12,959 nt of DNA from NCBI GenBank assembly GCA_964573185.1, contig CAZNIQ010000008.1, positions 1 to 12,959 of the forward strand, written 5' to 3'. Source of the stretch: Candidatus Woesearchaeota archaeon (GTDB lineage Archaea > Nanobdellota > Nanobdellia > Nanobdellales > CAZNIQ01). Position 1 is the first letter of the stretch; the number at the start of each line of letters is the position of its first letter. Below the pieces are notes generated by a model. The model searched no databases. It was given only the letters and a program-made list of their open reading frames with translations, and was not told where the DNA came from. Positions 3,887 to 12,959 of the stretch are shown here, piece after piece. The position numbers were made by a program, and so were the translations under genes.

Positions 3887-4135
3887 ATGTATTACAGTTG
3901 TATGACATCGATAGTAATTTCGGTGAGAATTCCTAAAGAAGTAAAGGAGTACTTAGAAAGGAATAATGTAAAAATTAGTAAAATTGTAAAAAAATTTCTC
4001 ATTTCTTATTATAAAATGTTAAAGAAGAAGGAATTAAGGAATAAAATAATAAATGAAATTAGAAAGTCTTTAGAAAAAGAAGAAGAAGAAAGAAAATTTT
4101 TGAATTTAATAAGAGATGATAGAGATACAAGGTAA
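3887..4135 (+). CDS. vapB: Putative VapB-type antitoxin (ribbon-helix-helix-like)
   Basis: Small protein. It has a beta-strand-like IVISVRIPKEV followed by two short helices, then a charged tail. It overlaps the downstream PIN gene by 20 nt. Met6 (3902) is a plausible true start. Confidence 0.6.
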   Translation: MYYSCMTSIVISVRIPKEVKEYLERNNVKISKIVKKFLISYYKMLKKKELRNKIINEIRKSLEKEEEERKFLNLIRDDRDTR

Positions 4136-4538: not shown

Positions 4539-6354
4539 CAACGACCTTTATATTTCTTCCCTCTTTAAGAGCCCTTAGCAATTCTTGTGCTATACTAATT
4601 CTTTTAGATAACCTTATTCTTCCCTTTTTACCAACCGTTGCCGTGAACAATAATCTATCGTCCACATAAATGTTTACAGTTCTTCCCTCCAATTCCTCTG
4701 GAACTCTTATTATTATTACATTCTTCGTTTCCTCTATTTCGAACTCTACTTCTCCAGTATATTCTTCTTCAAAGGTTTTGACAGTGATTTTTACTCCAAA
4801 AGCTCTTTCAAGTGCTTCAATAGTTTTACCTCTTTTTCCTATTAATCTTGGTCTTAGCTCTTCCGGTACCCAAACAATAATTCTATTTGGACCCGCAACC
4901 TCCACTTTTACTTTTCTTGTACCTAAGAACTTCCTAAACTTTTCAACAAGCAATTTTTCCAAGAGAGACAACACAGGTGTTTTGCTAACTTTTACTTCTT
5001 TTACAGGAACAACCATCGTTTCTTCACCAAATACATAGATTTCATATTCCAATTCCCCTGTCTCAAAATCTCTTACTTCTACTACGGGTCTAGCCAAATC
5101 TTCTGCGGTCATACCTGTAGGAACTTTTACTACTAACTTCAATTCATATACTTTTTCAACTCCTCCTTTTCTAATAAATATTATCGTATCTACAACCTGA
5201 GGGATCATACCAACGTCTATTCTTCCTATAAACCTTTGAATAGCTTCTATAGGTTCTGTTGCATGTACTACTCCAATCATTCCTACTCCCGCTAATCTTA
5301 AATCAACATATAATTTGAAATCAGGGGTATCTCTCATTTCATCGAATACTACATAATCCGGTCTTGCCAGTAATAAGATATCATGAATTTCTTGGGAAGT
5401 TGCAAAGTTCTTAGAATACTGTGTTATAATATCTTCTACTTGTAAGTCTCTTGGAGATTCGACAGTCTTAACAATCTTTCCTTTGGAAGCATACCACTCT
5501 GCTAAAGCTTGTGCAAAAGTTGTTTTTCCATGTCCTGGAGCACCAGCAATTAAAATACCTTCTGCTTTTTCTTCTAATCTCTTTAGTAGCTTTTCGCTTA
5601 AATTGTAATCTTCTAACTTTAATTTCTTCAATGGTCTAACAATAGTTATTTCCCAGCCATCTGAAACTGGGGGCTTTACAATTACAATTCTATATTTTCC
5701 TAATTGAACGATAATGCTCCCCGGTCTTTCTATTTCTATAAAGCCATCTGGTCTTATTTTTGCAGCTTCCAAAATCTCTAATGCTAAATTCTCTATTTGC
5801 TTAGCATCTAATTTAACATCAAGAAATTCTAAATACCATTCACCCGGCTTACCCTTTTTTCTCATAATCGGAACGTTTTCTTTAATATGTAAAGAAGCTG
5901 TATTTTCATCAAACCACTGCTCAAAAGTAAGTTTATCCATTAAAGGTGCTTTCTCAATATAATAAACTTTACAGCCATATGCTTCAGCAGCTAAAGCTTG
6001 AACTTTATCAGAAGTTATTAAAACGGCATCTTCCTCTAAAGCAAGATCACGAATCATAGAATCGATTCTACCAGATTTTGCTAGTTTGATTTCTTCTAAA
6101 GTAGGAAGTCTACCAGCAAATCTTATTTTAAATCCTTTTTCTTTGGCTAATTTTTGTAATCTCTTTACCTCTTCTAATCCTATAAAACCCGTTTCTCTTC
6201 CTTTTGCCGCTTGCTGTATTAACTCATCCATTGAAGCGTTATGAATTATTATTTCATTTACTTCGAGTTCTCCAGATTCGATCATTTTAGAAAGTACTCC
6301 ATCTATAAGCACAGACGTATCTGGTACTACTTTATCTATTTTTAACTTTGCCAT
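4531..6354 (-). CDS. Conserved archaeal PIN-domain / PilT-like ATPase / KH-domain protein (COG1855-type)
   Basis: N-terminal PIN (VVPDTSVLIDG ... ITSDKV). Walker A GAPGHGKTT, Walker B VVFDEMRD and a GVVHAT box. C-terminal KH GXXG motif (IGKRGKTIEALERAFGVKI). Confidence 0.85.
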   Translation of the reverse strand: MAKLKIDKVVPDTSVLIDGVLSKMIESGELEVNEIIIHNASMDELIQQAAKGRETGFIGLEEVKRLQKLAKEKGFKIRFAGRLPTLEEIKLAKSGRIDSMIRDLALEEDAVLITSDKVQALAAEAYGCKVYYIEKAPLMDKLTFEQWFDENTASLHIKENVPIMRKKGKPGEWYLEFLDVKLDAKQIENLALEILEAAKIRPDGFIEIERPGSIIVQLGKYRIVIVKPPVSDGWEITIVRPLKKLKLEDYNLSEKLLKRLEEKAEGILIAGAPGHGKTTFAQALAEWYASKGKIVKTVESPRDLQVEDIITQYSKNFATSQEIHDILLLARPDYVVFDEMRDTPDFKLYVDLRLAGVGMIGVVHATEPIEAIQRFIGRIDVGMIPQVVDTIIFIRKGGVEKVYELKLVVKVPTGMTAEDLARPVVEVRDFETGELEYEIYVFGEETMVVPVKEVKVSKTPVLSLLEKLLVEKFRKFLGTRKVKVEVAGPNRIIVWVPEELRPRLIGKRGKTIEALERAFGVKITVKTFEEEYTGEVEFEIEETKNVIIIRVPEELEGRTVNIYVDDRLLFTATVGKKGRIRLSKRISIAQELLRALKEGRNIKVVVT

Positions 6355-7885: not shown

Positions 7886-8383
7886 ATGAGAGGGTTATTT
7901 GGGTTCTTTAGAGGGAAGAAAAAGAAGCAAATAGATATTTCTGGGTTTGTAAGAAAAGAACCAAGTGGTTTGGGATACTCAAGTATTTCCGTACAGATCG
8001 GTGCAAGAGGTTTTCCATATATTGGAAAGATCGCTATGGTCTGGGCACAAAAACTGAAAAAAGATTTATCAGAAGCACAAGAGATACTTAAGAAAGAAGA
8101 AACAGAAGTTGCGGGCATCTCAAAAATTATCGAAGAGTTGTGGAAACTTGAACAAGAAAAATTGAAACTGTATAGATATTTAATGCTTATGGCAAAGAAA
8201 CCTGCAAATCTTCCAAAAGCAATAAAAGTTATTGAAACTTTAGATAAATTGATTCAAAAACAAATAGTTCTAATAAAACATCTCGCAAAGGAAGAGGGTT
8301 CTGAAAAACACACATTGGAAAAAGAGCGTGCCTTGCTAAAACAATTAAAAGGATTATTAGAAAAATATATACAACAAATGTGA
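7886..8383 (+). CDS. Hypothetical protein P2 (165 aa): amphipathic basic N-terminus, G/S/P-rich linker, C-terminal coiled coil
   Basis: Begins MRGLFGFFRGKKKKQ, followed by a linker of about 35 aa (EPSGLGYSSISVQIGARGFPYIGK), then about 110 aa of heptad-like helix. It lies 21 nt after P1 with no correctly spaced promoter, so it is probably co-transcribed. Confidence 0.7.
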   Translation: MRGLFGFFRGKKKKQIDISGFVRKEPSGLGYSSISVQIGARGFPYIGKIAMVWAQKLKKDLSEAQEILKKEETEVAGISKIIEELWKLEQEKLKLYRYLMLMAKKPANLPKAIKVIETLDKLIQKQIVLIKHLAKEEGSEKHTLEKERALLKQLKGLLEKYIQQM

Positions 8384-8403
8384 AATAATAAAAGACGAAG
8401 CCC

Positions 8404-8928
8404 TCACAAATCATTCACCAATTCTTCTAACGTTTTTCTAAATTCGTCCAAAATCCCATGTAAATCTAAGTTTAGAATTCTCTCTAATTCACTCATACTT
8501 TCGAAATCTACTTTTCCTTCTTTTATAAGTTCTATGATTGTTTTCCCCATTTTATCCCTACATTCCTTATATGAATTCCTTTGAGTACACATATTTAGCA
8601 ATCCCCATACCAATAAATCATGAAATTTTAGCTTTTTATCAGAAGATAGAGATTTTAATACAAACTTCCAGCCAGCTATATAATTTAAATCATCGTCAGC
8701 CGTAAAATCAAAACCAGTATCATAATTTTCCAAGGATTTTGCTGTTCTTACTATTCCTTGTGGTAATTCAATAATAAAATAATATATGTCAAAACCAAAA
8801 GATATTTTTCCTAAAACATTGTTATAACCGAATTCTCTTGCAAATCTATTAATATATTCATGGAATACTTTTGCATAAGATCGCATTAATTGTAGAACTT
8901 CTGAGATAAACTTCTCATACGCGCTCAT
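8404..8928 (-). CDS. Hypothetical globular protein P3 (174 aa)
   Basis: Aromatic-rich, non-repetitive sequence (FGFDIYYFIIELPQG, DFTADDDLNYIAGWKF) unlike its coiled-coil neighbours. It has its own TATA (reverse complement of 8951-8958) centred 26.5 nt upstream of the ATG. No family recognised. Confidence 0.7.
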   Translation of the reverse strand: MSAYEKFISEVLQLMRSYAKVFHEYINRFAREFGYNNVLGKISFGFDIYYFIIELPQGIVRTAKSLENYDTGFDFTADDDLNYIAGWKFVLKSLSSDKKLKFHDLLVWGLLNMCTQRNSYKECRDKMGKTIIELIKEGKVDFESMSELERILNLDLHGILDEFRKTLEELVNDL

Positions 8929-8949
8929 GAATAATGTTACTACTTCTAC

Positions 8950-8960
8950 TTTATAAAAAT
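8950..8960 (-). promoter_or_regulatory. TATA-like box for P3
   Basis: On the - strand ATTTTTATAAA; the octamer is centred 26.5 nt from the ATG at 8928. Confidence 0.45.
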
Positions 8961-8994
8961 TATTATCTATTTATACATAGTAGATTTTTAAAAC

Positions 8995-9003
8995 AATATT
9001 AAG
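8995..9003 (+). promoter_or_regulatory. TATA-like box for the P4-P5 operon
   Basis: TTTTTAAAA; the octamer 8996-9003 is centred 26.5 nt from the ATG at 9026. Confidence 0.45.
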
Positions 9004-9025
9004 AGAGAAGAAAAATATATTCTTT

Positions 9026-9250
9026 ATGCCCATTGATGAAAAACTTTCTAAGGAAAAAGAGGAGGATGTTCTAAAAGAAGAAATCGAGGTATTGGAAAGG
9101 GAAATAAAGTTAGCGATACTTGAATTGGAAGATCTAAAAGAAGATTTAAAAGAGTTAGGACTAAAGGAAAAATTAGAAGAGGATATAGAAGAAGTGGAGA
9201 AGTTCCTAAACAATGCTTATGAAATCGCGAAATTATTAAAACAATGGTAA
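9026..9250 (+). CDS. Hypothetical small, highly acidic coiled-coil protein P4 (74 aa)
   Basis: EEDVLKEEIEVLEREIKLAILELEDLKEDLKELGLKEKLEEDIEEVEKFL. The stop overlaps the P5 start (CAATGGTAA, 7-nt overlap), implying translational coupling. Confidence 0.65.
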   Translation: MPIDEKLSKEKEEDVLKEEIEVLEREIKLAILELEDLKEDLKELGLKEKLEEDIEEVEKFLNNAYEIAKLLKQW

Positions 9251-9948
9251 AGCTATCGGGTTTAGTAAAAAGGAGAACAAACAGATTATTAAAAACATTA
9301 AAGCAGTTTGGTAAAGAATTAGGAATTGAAGAAAAAGATTTGGAAAAACTTGAAATCTCGCTAAAGCAAGAAATAGAAAATTTAGAAAGACTAGAAAACG
9401 AAATTGGTAGAGAAACAGGAAAACTACTGAAAATATTATTGGAATATGAAGTTACAAAAAAAGAGCTTGCTACAAAAATAGTAAATGTTATACATATCTT
9501 GGCAGGAGTGCAAGGAAAAATACATAACCTAAGAGTAAGAGTTGCAAATGTTGGAACAAGAATAAAAACATTAATCAAAAAAGGAATTGGAAAATCTGCT
9601 TTGTTAGCACTAAAAGCCGCTGGATGGGCTGGATCTCCTACTGCGAGGCAGACGGCAGAAGCAGCAGAAGAAGAAATAGAGGAAACAATAATGTTAGAGA
9701 GACAATCGGCTTCTGCGATAAGATCTTTGAATAGAATTCTTTATGAAGTCAACGCAAGTATTGAAGGTACGCTTCAAAGATTAAAGGAGATAAATAATAA
9801 AGAAAAAAAGCTCTTAGATCAAATAAAGAATAATTTAAATAAAGAAGAAGAAATAATAAATAAAGCCCTACATATAGAAGCGACATTAAAAAATTTAGAA
9901 AGCCAATTAAGTCAAGTTTTGTCAGAACTACAAAGAACTAGTTCTTAA
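9244..9948 (+). CDS. Hypothetical protein P5 (234 aa): basic N-terminal helix and two coiled-coil arms flanking a central basic/hydrophobic region that ends in an Ala/Gly-rich segment
   Basis: N-terminus MVKLSGLVKRRTNRLLKTLKQF. Heptad-like arms at about residues 25-77 and 142-230. The central segment is IHILAGVQGKIHNLRVRVANVGTRIKTLIKKGIGKSALLALKAAGWAGSPTARQTAEAAEEE. No family recognised. Confidence 0.75.
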   Translation: MVKLSGLVKRRTNRLLKTLKQFGKELGIEEKDLEKLEISLKQEIENLERLENEIGRETGKLLKILLEYEVTKKELATKIVNVIHILAGVQGKIHNLRVRVANVGTRIKTLIKKGIGKSALLALKAAGWAGSPTARQTAEAAEEEIEETIMLERQSASAIRSLNRILYEVNASIEGTLQRLKEINNKEKKLLDQIKNNLNKEEEIINKALHIEATLKNLESQLSQVLSELQRTSS

Positions 9949-11602
9949 AGCTCAATATCTTTACCTCCCCAGTCCTTAAATTTTTTATAACAACTTTTGC
10001 CGGATCGGGAATATGTCCCATTTCTTTTTGGAATATTGTTAAGCCTTGCCAACATGAAGCATTGATTAAATCAATACCTTTATAGTTTCCATAAGCCGTA
10101 CGATGAATGTGACCAGTAACAAAGATATCCGGGATGGGATCAATTAACAGAGGATCTTCTGATGGGTATGGGATGTATGCTGTGGAACCATGAGTTGGAG
10201 CTAAATGTCTTAGTTGTAACATAAATTTCATTATCAAAACGGCATTTTCATATCCCCCATTTTGCCTTATCATTTCAACATTAGATACTAACCAATCCAT
10301 AGAATAACCATGATATATCAAAGTTAAAAATCCTTGGAAATCTTTAGTATAATGTATTCTAACGTAAGAAGGATTGGATAAGAAATAAACATTTTTCATT
10401 TGATACGCATTTGGTAAATATTCTTTTGGTATTGGAGGTTGTGGCTCTGCTAGTCTAACAACAACATCGTGATTTCCGGGTATTACTATTATTTTTATAT
10501 GTTCTGGGACTTCCTCTAAATACTTTTCAAATACTTCATATTGTTTATATATATCATCTATTTCCAATTCTTCCCTTTGATTTGGATATACACCAATACC
10601 ATCAACTATATCCCCAGGAATTACCCAGTAAGCCACTTTTCTTGCCATCTCCCTTTGTTTCTCATTTCCATATTCTCCTTTCAACCATTTAATAAATTTT
10701 TCAAATTCCTTTTTTAAGAAAAGCTTATTTCCGAACTGGAAATCGCCAGTAAATATAACATAAATATCTTCTTTTATCGGAGCAGTCTTCTTTTCCTTTT
10801 GAGGAACGTCTGGTAAGAATATTTGTTCAGGAAATACGGTTTCGTTTTTAATCGTACCGAAAACCCCTATAACAGAATCCTCCGGAATACTTTTAGCTAA
10901 AGAATATAATTCGCTATCTTTTTTAACGTAAACTGTAATATAACCAGTAGGATCTTCTAAAATTAGTTTAACATTACCGTTAGGCAAAATTCTCTTTTCA
11001 TAAACTAATCCTGCTATAGAAACTTCTTCATTTTCTTTTTTCTTAGCTAGATCTATACTAACCACATTTAACATTTCTTTATGCAATTTCAAAGCTTTCA
11101 TCAATTTCTTTAATCTTACTTTGAAATATTGTGCCCAAGCAGGAACAGATATCTCCTCAGGAGGATTTACATAGTTTTTCTCAATTTTGATATTTGTTTC
11201 AATTTCTTCTCCTATATATCTTTTCTTTGGCTCTATAATTTCTACTTCTTTTGGTTTCTCCTTTATAATAACTTTCTGCTCAATTTTCACTGTTTTCTCT
11301 ATTTTTACTTCTTCAGTTTCTTTTACCTCTTTAAAGAATTGAGTAAGTGTTATAGATTTTCCATTTGTTTTTACTTTAATTTTCCTTTCTTTTCTTAAAG
11401 TTTCACCCGTTTTTTTATTCTTTACTTTAACTAAAACTTCTTTTGTCAAAATTCTTGGTATGTTATTTCCATATACTAATCTCAAATTCTTTAGGAATTC
11501 TTCTATATCAAAATCTCCATTTATCTCTTCAAGAAAATCTGCTGTAACTATAAATCCTCTTCTCGCAAATTCTTCAATTATCCTTTTTATCTTTGGATTC
11601 AT
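9938..11602 (-). CDS. dp1: DNA polymerase II (PolD) small subunit DP1, with a calcineurin-like phosphoesterase domain
   Basis: Phosphoesterase motifs PGDIVDG, PGNHD, YHGYS and TGHIHRT are present. Also present are the OB-fold region, the conserved N-terminal domain and a K/E-rich linker. Motif I reads GDFQFG rather than the usual D-x-H. The ATG overlaps the cdc6 stop (ATGA). Confidence 0.93.
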   Translation of the reverse strand: MNPKIKRIIEEFARRGFIVTADFLEEINGDFDIEEFLKNLRLVYGNNIPRILTKEVLVKVKNKKTGETLRKERKIKVKTNGKSITLTQFFKEVKETEEVKIEKTVKIEQKVIIKEKPKEVEIIEPKKRYIGEEIETNIKIEKNYVNPPEEISVPAWAQYFKVRLKKLMKALKLHKEMLNVVSIDLAKKKENEEVSIAGLVYEKRILPNGNVKLILEDPTGYITVYVKKDSELYSLAKSIPEDSVIGVFGTIKNETVFPEQIFLPDVPQKEKKTAPIKEDIYVIFTGDFQFGNKLFLKKEFEKFIKWLKGEYGNEKQREMARKVAYWVIPGDIVDGIGVYPNQREELEIDDIYKQYEVFEKYLEEVPEHIKIIVIPGNHDVVVRLAEPQPPIPKEYLPNAYQMKNVYFLSNPSYVRIHYTKDFQGFLTLIYHGYSMDWLVSNVEMIRQNGGYENAVLIMKFMLQLRHLAPTHGSTAYIPYPSEDPLLIDPIPDIFVTGHIHRTAYGNYKGIDLINASCWQGLTIFQKEMGHIPDPAKVVIKNLRTGEVKILSFKN

Positions 11603-12825
11603 AGGAACTCCTCTTTTAGCAAATTCACTATCTTTTCATATACTTTGTCTGAAAAATTAATTGTGATTTCTCTTGTTCTACCGTATCTTCCTCTAGAAAT
11701 CACTTTTGCGTTTATAATACCAAGCATGTCTAACTCTGCTATAATATCTGAAACTCTTCTTTGGGTTAGAGGTGGCAACCCTATTTCCTTGCAAACCTTT
11801 GTATATTCTTCATAAACTTTTCCAGTATATGTCTTTTCGGAAGGATCCTTTACTAATCTTAAAATTGCAAACAATACTAATTGAGCTTGTTTTGGTAAAG
11901 ATCTTATCAATTCTGTTAAAGTATCTGTTTCTAACTTTTCTAAAGCTTTATCTACATGCTCCAATGTTATTTTTTCAGCACCCTCTCTTTCTGCAATCTC
12001 ACCAGCTAGTCTTAACAACTCTAAAGCTTTTCTAGCATCCCCATGTTCCCTTGCAGCAATTGCAGCTATCTTTTCAATAACTCCTTCCTCTATAACCCCT
12101 TCTCTAAAAGCCAACTTTGCTCTTTGATATAAAATATCTTTTAGTTGTTGAGCGTTATAAGGAGGAAATAAAATTTCCTCTGCATCCAATGAAGACTTTA
12201 TTCTAGGGTCTATATCATCTAAGAACGTCAAAGAGTTGGAAATCCCAACAAAGGATACCTGCGCTTTTTGCAATTCAGAATTTATTCTTGTAAGATTATA
12301 TAAAACTTCATCACCAGCCTTCTTAACCAAATGATCTATTTCATCTAAAATAATAATTACAACTTGCTCTTTTTTATCTAATAGCTCGAAGAACTTTCTA
12401 TATAGAATATCTAAAGGTAGACCTGTTGAAGGAACCTTGCCACCTAATTCATGTATTAGATTTGCAATAACTCTATATTCCGTATCAGAAACTTTTTTCA
12501 TCTTGCAATTAACATAGAGGATTTTAACAGGGACGTTATATTTTTGAGCGGCTCTTTCTAAGTGTATAGAAACGTATTTTGCAGTTAAAGTTTTACCAGT
12601 ACCTGTCTTTCCATACAAAAACACATTTGAAGGCTTTTCCAGTCTTAAAGCAGGAGCAAGAATAGCTGTCAATTGCTTTATTTGCTCTTCCCTATGTAAA
12701 ATTGTCTCAGGAATATAAGAATCTGTTAAAACCTTTCTGTTTACAAACAGAGATTTCTTTTTGACATATTGATCAAAGAAAGTTTCAAGGAAATCTGTTA
12801 TCTTTACTTGACTCATGGGATACAC
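11599..12825 (-). CDS. cdc6: Orc1/Cdc6 replication initiator (AAA+ with C-terminal winged helix)
   Basis: Walker A LYGKTGTGKT, Walker B IIILDEIDHL, sensor-1 FVGISNS and a winged-helix C-terminus (ISRGRYGRTREI). Met4 (12816) is an alternative start. Confidence 0.96.
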   Translation of the reverse strand: MYPMSQVKITDFLETFFDQYVKKKSLFVNRKVLTDSYIPETILHREEQIKQLTAILAPALRLEKPSNVFLYGKTGTGKTLTAKYVSIHLERAAQKYNVPVKILYVNCKMKKVSDTEYRVIANLIHELGGKVPSTGLPLDILYRKFFELLDKKEQVVIIILDEIDHLVKKAGDEVLYNLTRINSELQKAQVSFVGISNSLTFLDDIDPRIKSSLDAEEILFPPYNAQQLKDILYQRAKLAFREGVIEEGVIEKIAAIAAREHGDARKALELLRLAGEIAEREGAEKITLEHVDKALEKLETDTLTELIRSLPKQAQLVLFAILRLVKDPSEKTYTGKVYEEYTKVCKEIGLPPLTQRRVSDIIAELDMLGIINAKVISRGRYGRTREITINFSDKVYEKIVNLLKEEFL

Positions 12826-12842
12826 ATGAAATAAACCTTAAC

Positions 12843-12852
12843 TTTTATAAAA
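12843..12852 (-). promoter_or_regulatory. Palindromic TATA-like box (TTTTATAAAA) upstream of cdc6
   Basis: The - strand octamer TTTTATAA (reverse complement of 12845-12852) is centred 23.5 nt from ATG 12825 and 32.5 nt from Met4 (12816). Confidence 0.5.
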
Positions 12853-12862
12853 CTTTTTATTG

Positions 12863-12878
12863 CCCCCCCCCCCCCCCC
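12863..12878. repeat. C16 homopolymer (G16 on the cdc6-coding strand)
   Basis: Counted directly: 8 C at 12863-12870 plus 8 C at 12871-12878. It sits between the cdc6 TATA box and an ORB-like dyad, in DNA that is otherwise strongly AT-rich. Confidence 0.9.
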
Positions 12879-12891
12879 TTCCTGTTGTGAA
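12863..12891 (-). other. Candidate origin recognition box (ORB-like dyad plus G-string)
   Basis: The - strand reads TTCACAACAGGAA followed directly by G16. Characterised archaeal ORB elements combine a short TTCC..GGAA-type dyad with a downstream G-string. Only one copy is visible before the window ends. Confidence 0.35.
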
Positions 12892-12959
12892 TAATAATAA
12901 CAATTATTTAATTCAATTAAAAATATATTAGAGGCATATAATAATTAATAATTATTATT
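12892..12959. other. Extremely AT-rich stretch, candidate duplex-unwinding element of oriC
   Basis: TAATAATAACAATTATTTAATTCAATTAAAAATATATTAGAGGCATATAATAATTAATAATTATTATT has only a handful of G/C. It lies directly upstream of cdc6, as at Pyrococcus oriC. No ORF is present. Confidence 0.35.

Follow-up and report, generated by a model that had tools for sequence, protein, structure and literature searches.

The DNA directly upstream of the orc1/cdc6 initiator gene, at positions 12817-12959 of the window (the whole stretch analysed, 12,959 nt), probably represents the cdc6-proximal border of a chromosomal replication origin of the oriC1 type in an uncultured, low-GC DPANN archaeon. This reading rests mainly on comparison with relatives and not on the motif in the window. 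An origin next to cdc6, with a dyad and G-string resembling an origin recognition box (ORB), had been proposed for this DNA in the earlier note; the edge of an oriC1-type origin and the G-string of its proximal ORB are upheld by the sister locus L044 and by 40 of 40 more distant loci, while a convincing dyad is not. In favor of the origin, the element adjoins cdc6, the flanking AT-rich stretch has the lowest GC content of the window, and the G-string is oriented as in relatives. GC skew over 13-21 kb, covering the window and L044, tracked gene orientation and offered no usable inflection. The features of the region are collected in the table.

Table. Genes and sequence elements at the cdc6 end of the window
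Feature	Positions	Strand	Basis or remark
DP1 (PolD small subunit)	9938..11602	-	Pfam DNA_pol_E_B, Metallophos, OB-fold
cdc6 (orc1/cdc6 initiator, 405 aa)	11599..12816	-	Pfam Cdc6_C (6e-32), Cdc6_lid (1.5e-26), AAA
Promoter-proximal block AAGGTTTATTTCATGTGTAT	12820..12839	-	between TATA box and ATG; G-less, inverted half-site resembling a mini-ORB
cdc6 TATA box TTTTATAAAA	12843..12852	-	read directly; 10 nt from the G-run
G16, then CAA	12863..12878	- (C16 on + strand)	read directly
13-mer TTCACAACAGGAA on the cdc6 strand	12879..12891	- (+ strand, TTCCTGTTGTGAA)	read directly
AT-rich stretch, 68 nt, 8.8% GC	12892..12959	.	lowest-GC 68-mer of the window; runs to the window end

The initiator gene begins with an ATG at position 12816, and its product corresponds at 100% identity to P0001; homologues at E<=1e-100 number over 7700. 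Its stop overlaps the start of DP1 by 4 nt, the two genes forming an operon, and the pair also occurs in the related loci L042 and L044. Both the cdc6-DP1 pair and the TATA box, which had been called earlier, are real, as judged from the Pfam matches of the former and the conservation of the latter as TTTATAAA(A/T) in L044 and L042. Genes for L11, SecE, Spt5, FtsZ, RpoL and tRNA-Ile lie near the pair on this metagenomic contig of a low-GC (31%) DPANN archaeon, and Rfam and tRNA scans gave no match within the cdc6-upstream region. The order cdc6-DP1-rpoL-AMMECR1-PIN/KH ATPase is common to the window and L044. A variable island separates DP1 from rpoL (window ~7931-9938 vs L044 12888-13397): in the window it measures ~2 kb and holds three coiled-coil-looking ORFs of 165, 174 and 234 aa without a significant Pfam family, and in L044 it consists of 0.5 kb of unrelated sequence, although the flanking sequences share 82-85% identity.

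Upstream of cdc6, the 13-mer, the G16, the TATA box and the 68 nt at 8.8% GC were all found as the earlier note had them. Toward the gene, the order is dyad, G16 and cdc6; AT-rich DNA lies opposite, and the G-string points away from it. The G16 is the sole G/C run of seven or more within the window. The site is close to the cdc6 start, as had been noted; the measured distances from the ATG are 47-62 nt for the G-run and 63-75 nt for the 13-mer, in place of the ~40-65 bp given before. Only one ORB-like site is visible in the cdc6-upstream part of the window, and no second copy occurs within 12892-12959, the 68 nt before the window end.

The comparison that carries the origin reading begins with the wider DPANN archaea, in which a canonical ORB, approximately TTCCAnnnGAAAyAAAGGGGT(G)GGG, stands upstream of cdc6 in almost every locus. 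Where an ORB is on the cdc6 strand, its G-string faces the gene; the inverted ORBs are found across an AT-rich stretch, and the orientation of the window element is matched upstream of cdc6 in 95 of 96 relatives. In a held-out test on 40 JGI loci whose upstream DNA extends to 1 kb or more, scored at an ORB cut-off of 18 bits, direct and inverted ORBs were present within 1 kb upstream of cdc6 in every DPANN locus (40/40), at a density of 2.23 per kb in that 1 kb vs 0.023 per kb elsewhere. The gap between the ORBs of these 40 relatives has a median length of 168 nt and a GC content of 20.6%, vs 36.6% for whole loci. The succession of ORB, unwinding region and ORB is known as the oriC1 architecture of other archaea (PMC4010727), and the held-out loci, the ORB density and the AT-rich gap together indicate that it is general in the DPANN superphylum. 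Within the sub-clade of the window, L041 (Cdc6 73% identical) has no ORB within 1.2 kb upstream of cdc6, from which it follows that the linkage of origin and cdc6 is not fixed; at L041 positions 961-1227, cdc6 and a divergent 62-aa ORF are 42 bp apart.

The AT-rich region of DPANN origins also contains a 13-bp palindrome, ATAACAnTGTTAT, for which we know of no described function. Of 74 loci, 47 contain it (L012, L020 and L008 are examples); 60 of its 68 copies lie between inverted ORBs, and in the 40 held-out loci it is ~37-fold enriched relative to the remainder of the loci. Possible roles are a second protein-binding site or the start of melting. The palindrome is absent from the window, L044 and L042, and ATAACAATTATTT of the window was rejected as a counterpart, as it fails TAACnnnGTTA.

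Closer evidence comes from the sister genome. The 90% cluster of the window Cdc6 contains one other protein, P0121, which leads to L044 (NCBI GCA_054017035.1, 49-kb MAG contig JBPMBW010000006.1, with the origin at locus positions 9463-9753) and to the Logan contig L045. Between L044 and the window, Cdc6 is more than 90% identical and coding DNA 82-85% identical; the other closest species-level Cdc6 relatives reach at most 58% identity and belong to DPANN MAGs labelled Aenigmatarchaeota, Nanoarchaeota or Woesearchaeota, and a scan of JGI metagenomes returned relatives at 60% identity or less only. In L044, the end of a DUF460 gene, farthest upstream of cdc6, is followed by an inverted ORB (CCCCCACCCCCCTATTTCCTGTGGAG, 35.8 bits), by 235 nt of inter-ORB DNA at 17.9% GC, and by a proximal direct ORB of 31.0 bits, which consists of CTCCACATGAAAC, then G11, then CAAGAC. 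Approximately 215 bp separate this proximal ORB from the cdc6 promoter, TTTATAAAA...GGTACATTTCCTATGTAGCCCATG, which is homologous to that of the window. No orthologue of the neighboring DUF460 gene was found from the window strain. L045 starts inside the G-run, with 15 G (a minimum, as the contig is cut there) and then CAAGAC.

The DNA homology between the window and L044 ends at the TATA box (window 12851), and the sole further match upstream is G11CAA. Across 1.18 Mb of fetched DPANN loci, G/C runs of nine or more occur only at the proximal ORB G-string of L044 and L045, the G-runs of the other 214 ORBs in relatives being 2-8 long. Because the G-run with CAA is the only upstream match and runs of this length are found nowhere else in these loci, the G16-CAA of the window is, by sequence, almost certainly the same G-string as the G11-CAA of the L044 proximal ORB. 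The DNA between G-run and promoter is the site of a ~215-bp indel (window 12853-12862 vs L044 9753-9966) with CAA at both bounds; the segment is present in L044, where it carries a second TTTATAAAA and a palindrome, GGAAATTCTATGTTCC, and absent from the window. It may have been lost in the window lineage, possibly between the two CAA repeats, or gained in L044.

In L042/L043 (64% identity), CTTGCACAGGAAATCGA is followed by G7, scores 27.5 bits, and has a G-run that stops ~65 nt short of the ATG. At L042 1790-1812, ~100 nt upstream of the L042 ORB, the 15-bp ORB core (GATTTCCTGTGCAAG) recurs as an exact inverted copy. As this copy sits in a called ORF and its G-run is on the 'wrong' strand, it would be a mini-ORB and no true inverted ORB.

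As an ORB dyad, the 13-mer proved unconvincing. On a 28-nt position matrix built from DPANN ORB sites upstream of cdc6, the best ungapped fit, ACAACAGGAAG vs TCCACAGGAAA, agreed at 8 of 11 core positions and scored 11.7 bits, which falls inside the maxima of shuffled windows (mean 5.8, 95th percentile 12.0). This is a counterpoint to the origin reading: the score equals chance maxima, whereas the ORBs of close relatives reach at least 27 bits, with 27-36 bits on the same matrix (27.5-35.8 for L042/L044). In the ungapped ranking, the 13-mer came second in the window, behind one coding site; by our own estimate, chance would put a top-two site in the 143 nt where an ORB is expected, and orient it as expected, with a probability of about 1%. 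Three ORB-like sites within coding sequence (3927-3954, 4679-4706 and 8208-8235) score about the same as the 13-mer and were taken as chance. Deletion of one base (TTC[A]CA to TTCCA) raised the score to 16.6 bits, the best of the window, against a shuffle 95th percentile of 16.0; this single-indel rescue was rejected, as the score is borderline and the dyad spacing is left one base too long.

A second search gave the same answer. Infernal model R1, sequence-only and built from 148 ORBs of distant relatives with none from the clade of the window, reported no match to the 13-mer element even at E<=10. In 46 kb, it ranked the far ORB of L044, the ORB of L042 and the near ORB of L044 first to third (E 7e-5, 0.006 and 0.009), both L044 ORBs having been held out of training. 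The ORB consensus (TTCCAnnnGAAA, spacer, GGGG) is matched by the window element only in its GGAA and G-string part. In TTCACAACAGGAA, the right half-site CAGGAA is kept, the left half reads ACAA in place of TCCA, and the symmetry is limited to TTC/GAA; the TTCC core, broken in the window, reads TTCA, and a repaired form of the dyad would be TTCCACAGGAAA. In Pyrococcus, the TTCC core is perfectly conserved and its substitution lowers Cdc6 binding (PMC1904270).

It is conceivable, though on the whole unlikely, that the origin does lie here but that the G16 and the 13-mer are a decayed relic to which Orc1 no longer binds in a useful way, with the working ORBs past the window end and a leftover G-run beside the cdc6 promoter. 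The low matrix score, the missing Infernal match and the broken TTCC core fit decay, and the ~215 bp by which the distance from G-run to promoter differs from L044 implies that the region has been rearranged; yet the G-run has been kept, and is longer, in a lineage otherwise without G/C runs, CAGGAA on the right and the orientation have survived as well, and the G-string itself is essential in haloarchaea. The motif alone is not significant, and L041 has a cdc6 without an adjacent ORB, so that one might deny the region any origin function, regard the G16 and the AT-rich DNA only as promoter-upstream DNA of cdc6, e.g., a slippage-prone homopolymer that sets promoter strength, and place the origin elsewhere. 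The variation of G-run length among strains (11, at least 15, 16) would suit such a homopolymer. We regard this as improbable: the G-run of L044 is part of a 31-bit ORB that is paired with a 36-bit inverted ORB and stands 215 bp from the promoter, and origins occupy the matching position in 40 of 40 relatives.

A technical origin of the run, as poly-G from two-colour Illumina chemistry or as a mis-join, with the odd dyad produced by homopolymer-induced errors, appears very improbable. The near-identical ENA contig L001 does end at window position 12838, 25 nt short of the run, and the first bases of L045 belong to it; the run length is uncertain, and bases next to a homopolymer of 16 nt could contain assembly errors. 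However, the window and L044, which are independent assemblies, both cross a G-run with unique sequence on either side, L045 shares the CAA flank, and a run of 16 nt is far below assembler k-mers and would not by itself cause a false join. The border of an oriC1-type origin remains the preferred reading of 12817-12959. G-rich or G-quadruplex (G4) elements have been reported at metazoan origins, and a G4 at the window tract would echo these. That the homopolymeric tract (G11, at least G15 and G16 in three assemblies) is both slippage-prone and itself functional seems rather doubtful to us. One possibility is a G4-capable element at an archaeal origin; another is a hypermutable length 'dial' on Orc1 binding and origin firing and, here, also on cdc6-DP1 transcription, which the dial could reach, as the tract stops 10 bp short of the TATA box. 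A parallel G4 is a known fold of a G15 stretch (Sengar 2014, cited in PMC8044849).

Transcription of cdc6 itself may be tied to Orc1 binding. The TATA box is centred ~32 nt before the ATG, which suggests a leaderless or very short-leader mRNA. It had been supposed that initiator bound at the G16 site could regulate cdc6-DP1 transcription; this is sterically plausible, since 10 bp separate the window ORB from the TATA box and bound Orc1 could hinder TFB/TBP binding there, but the placement is unconserved, with the L044 ORB ~215 bp farther off. The promoter-proximal block AAGGTTTATTTCATGTGTAT is, by its sequence, a better conserved candidate than the G16 site for Orc1 autoregulation of cdc6. Its ATTTC.T.TG.A does not vary among the window, L044, L042 and L041, and deeper relatives have in its place a complete inverted mini-ORB, TTTCCnnnGGAA, that lacks a G-string. 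Taken alone, the block is not significant (Infernal 4.8 bits, E 3.3; 5.1 bits on a dyad-only matrix). The dyad-only (mini-ORB) matrix was set aside, as it does not discriminate in a K/E-rich, AT-rich genome, where many coding matches outscore AAGGTTTATTTCATGTGTAT.

In crystal structures of Orc1 on ORBs from Sulfolobus and Aeropyrum, Orc1 is monomeric, with the winged helix on the dyad and the initiator-specific motif on the G-rich side. From established work of this kind, we infer Orc1 binding, unwinding, firing and any autoregulation at the window site. The Orc1/Cdc6 encoded next door would bind ORBs placed around an AT-rich unwinding region with their G-strings outward, its winged-helix domain on the dyad and the initiator-specific motif of its AAA+ domain on the G-string, and the bound Orc1 would distort the DNA and load MCM onto the AT-rich part. 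As the G-string of the proximal ORB, the G16 would have expanded into a homopolymer across the customary spacer and the second GGGG block; it covers what relatives have as a 4-nt spacer, GGGG, T and GGGG, and could therefore still offer contacts for the AAA+ initiator-specific motif. With its diverged dyad, the site would probably be a weaker one for Orc1, dependent on contact with the G-string and on cooperation from ORBs past the window end. The unwinding region probably opens with the 68 nt at 12892-12959, and a partner inverted ORB would be expected 60-250 nt past the window end.

ORB origins adjacent to cdc6 are textbook knowledge, and extended G-strings are already known from haloarchaea; the unusual trait here is the G11-G16 homopolymer. 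In the searchable literature, no paper was found that pairs 'origin recognition box' with DPANN, and a 2026 preprint rotates Nanobdellota genomes to ORC1 without an analysis of origin sequences. The present comparison places a probable chromosomal origin for an uncultured DPANN archaeon and, through ~100 related loci, indicates that the classic ORB / AT-rich / ORB origin beside cdc6 is conserved across the DPANN superphylum. It may be of use in annotation, in rotating genomes and in estimating growth rates from read depth, and the general picture of archaeal replication is unchanged by it. Short-read assemblies break at the origin G-run (L001 and L045), whose length is 11, at least 15 or 16 depending on the assembly; the homopolymeric G-string would account for breaks exactly at the origin. 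Moreover, a G-string of 11-16 nt raises the question of how much of ORB recognition is carried by the G-string contact when the dyad is degenerate.

Among characterized systems, the origin of Pyrococcus is close in layout. Its oriC comprises ORB1 and ORB2 as an inverted repeat together with mini-ORBs, in the arrangement oriC-cdc6-dp1 (PMC1904270). As in P. abyssi and P. furiosus (PMC1904270), the origin of the window would lie directly upstream of cdc6, followed by dp1, with AT-rich DNA on the far side. The Pyrococcus ORB is a TTCC...GAA dyad with a G-run, whereas the TTCC core of the window dyad is broken; in the P. furiosus ORB1 probe, G6 comes after an 8-nt spacer, whereas the G16 of the window abuts the dyad. 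The Thermococcales-type region has a second ORB cluster in dp1, whereas no ORB match better than E=1 was obtained in 9938-11602 of the window, and, unlike in that region, dp2 does not come after dp1.

Sulfolobus solfataricus oriC1, with its ORB and mini-ORB elements, shares the expected binding mode and the polarity away from the unwinding region, although the window dyad is much further from the consensus. The sister origin of L044 differs from the window: there the dyad is canonical, the run is G11 and not G16, ~215 bp more DNA lies between ORB and promoter, and the far ORB is visible. For the G-string itself, there is a likeness with haloarchaea. In Haloarcula hispanica, extended G-strings are essential for oriC1 function and autonomous replication (PMC3936714), and the window lineage shares with the haloarchaeal extended G-string ORB a G-run beyond the classic 3-5 G (G16 in the window, G11 in L044, at least 15 in L045). 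The runs mutated in haloarchaea comprise 6-8 G/C in a GC-rich genome, whereas those of the window lineage are pure homopolymers of 11-16 that replace the spacer, in a non-halophilic DPANN archaeon of 31% GC.
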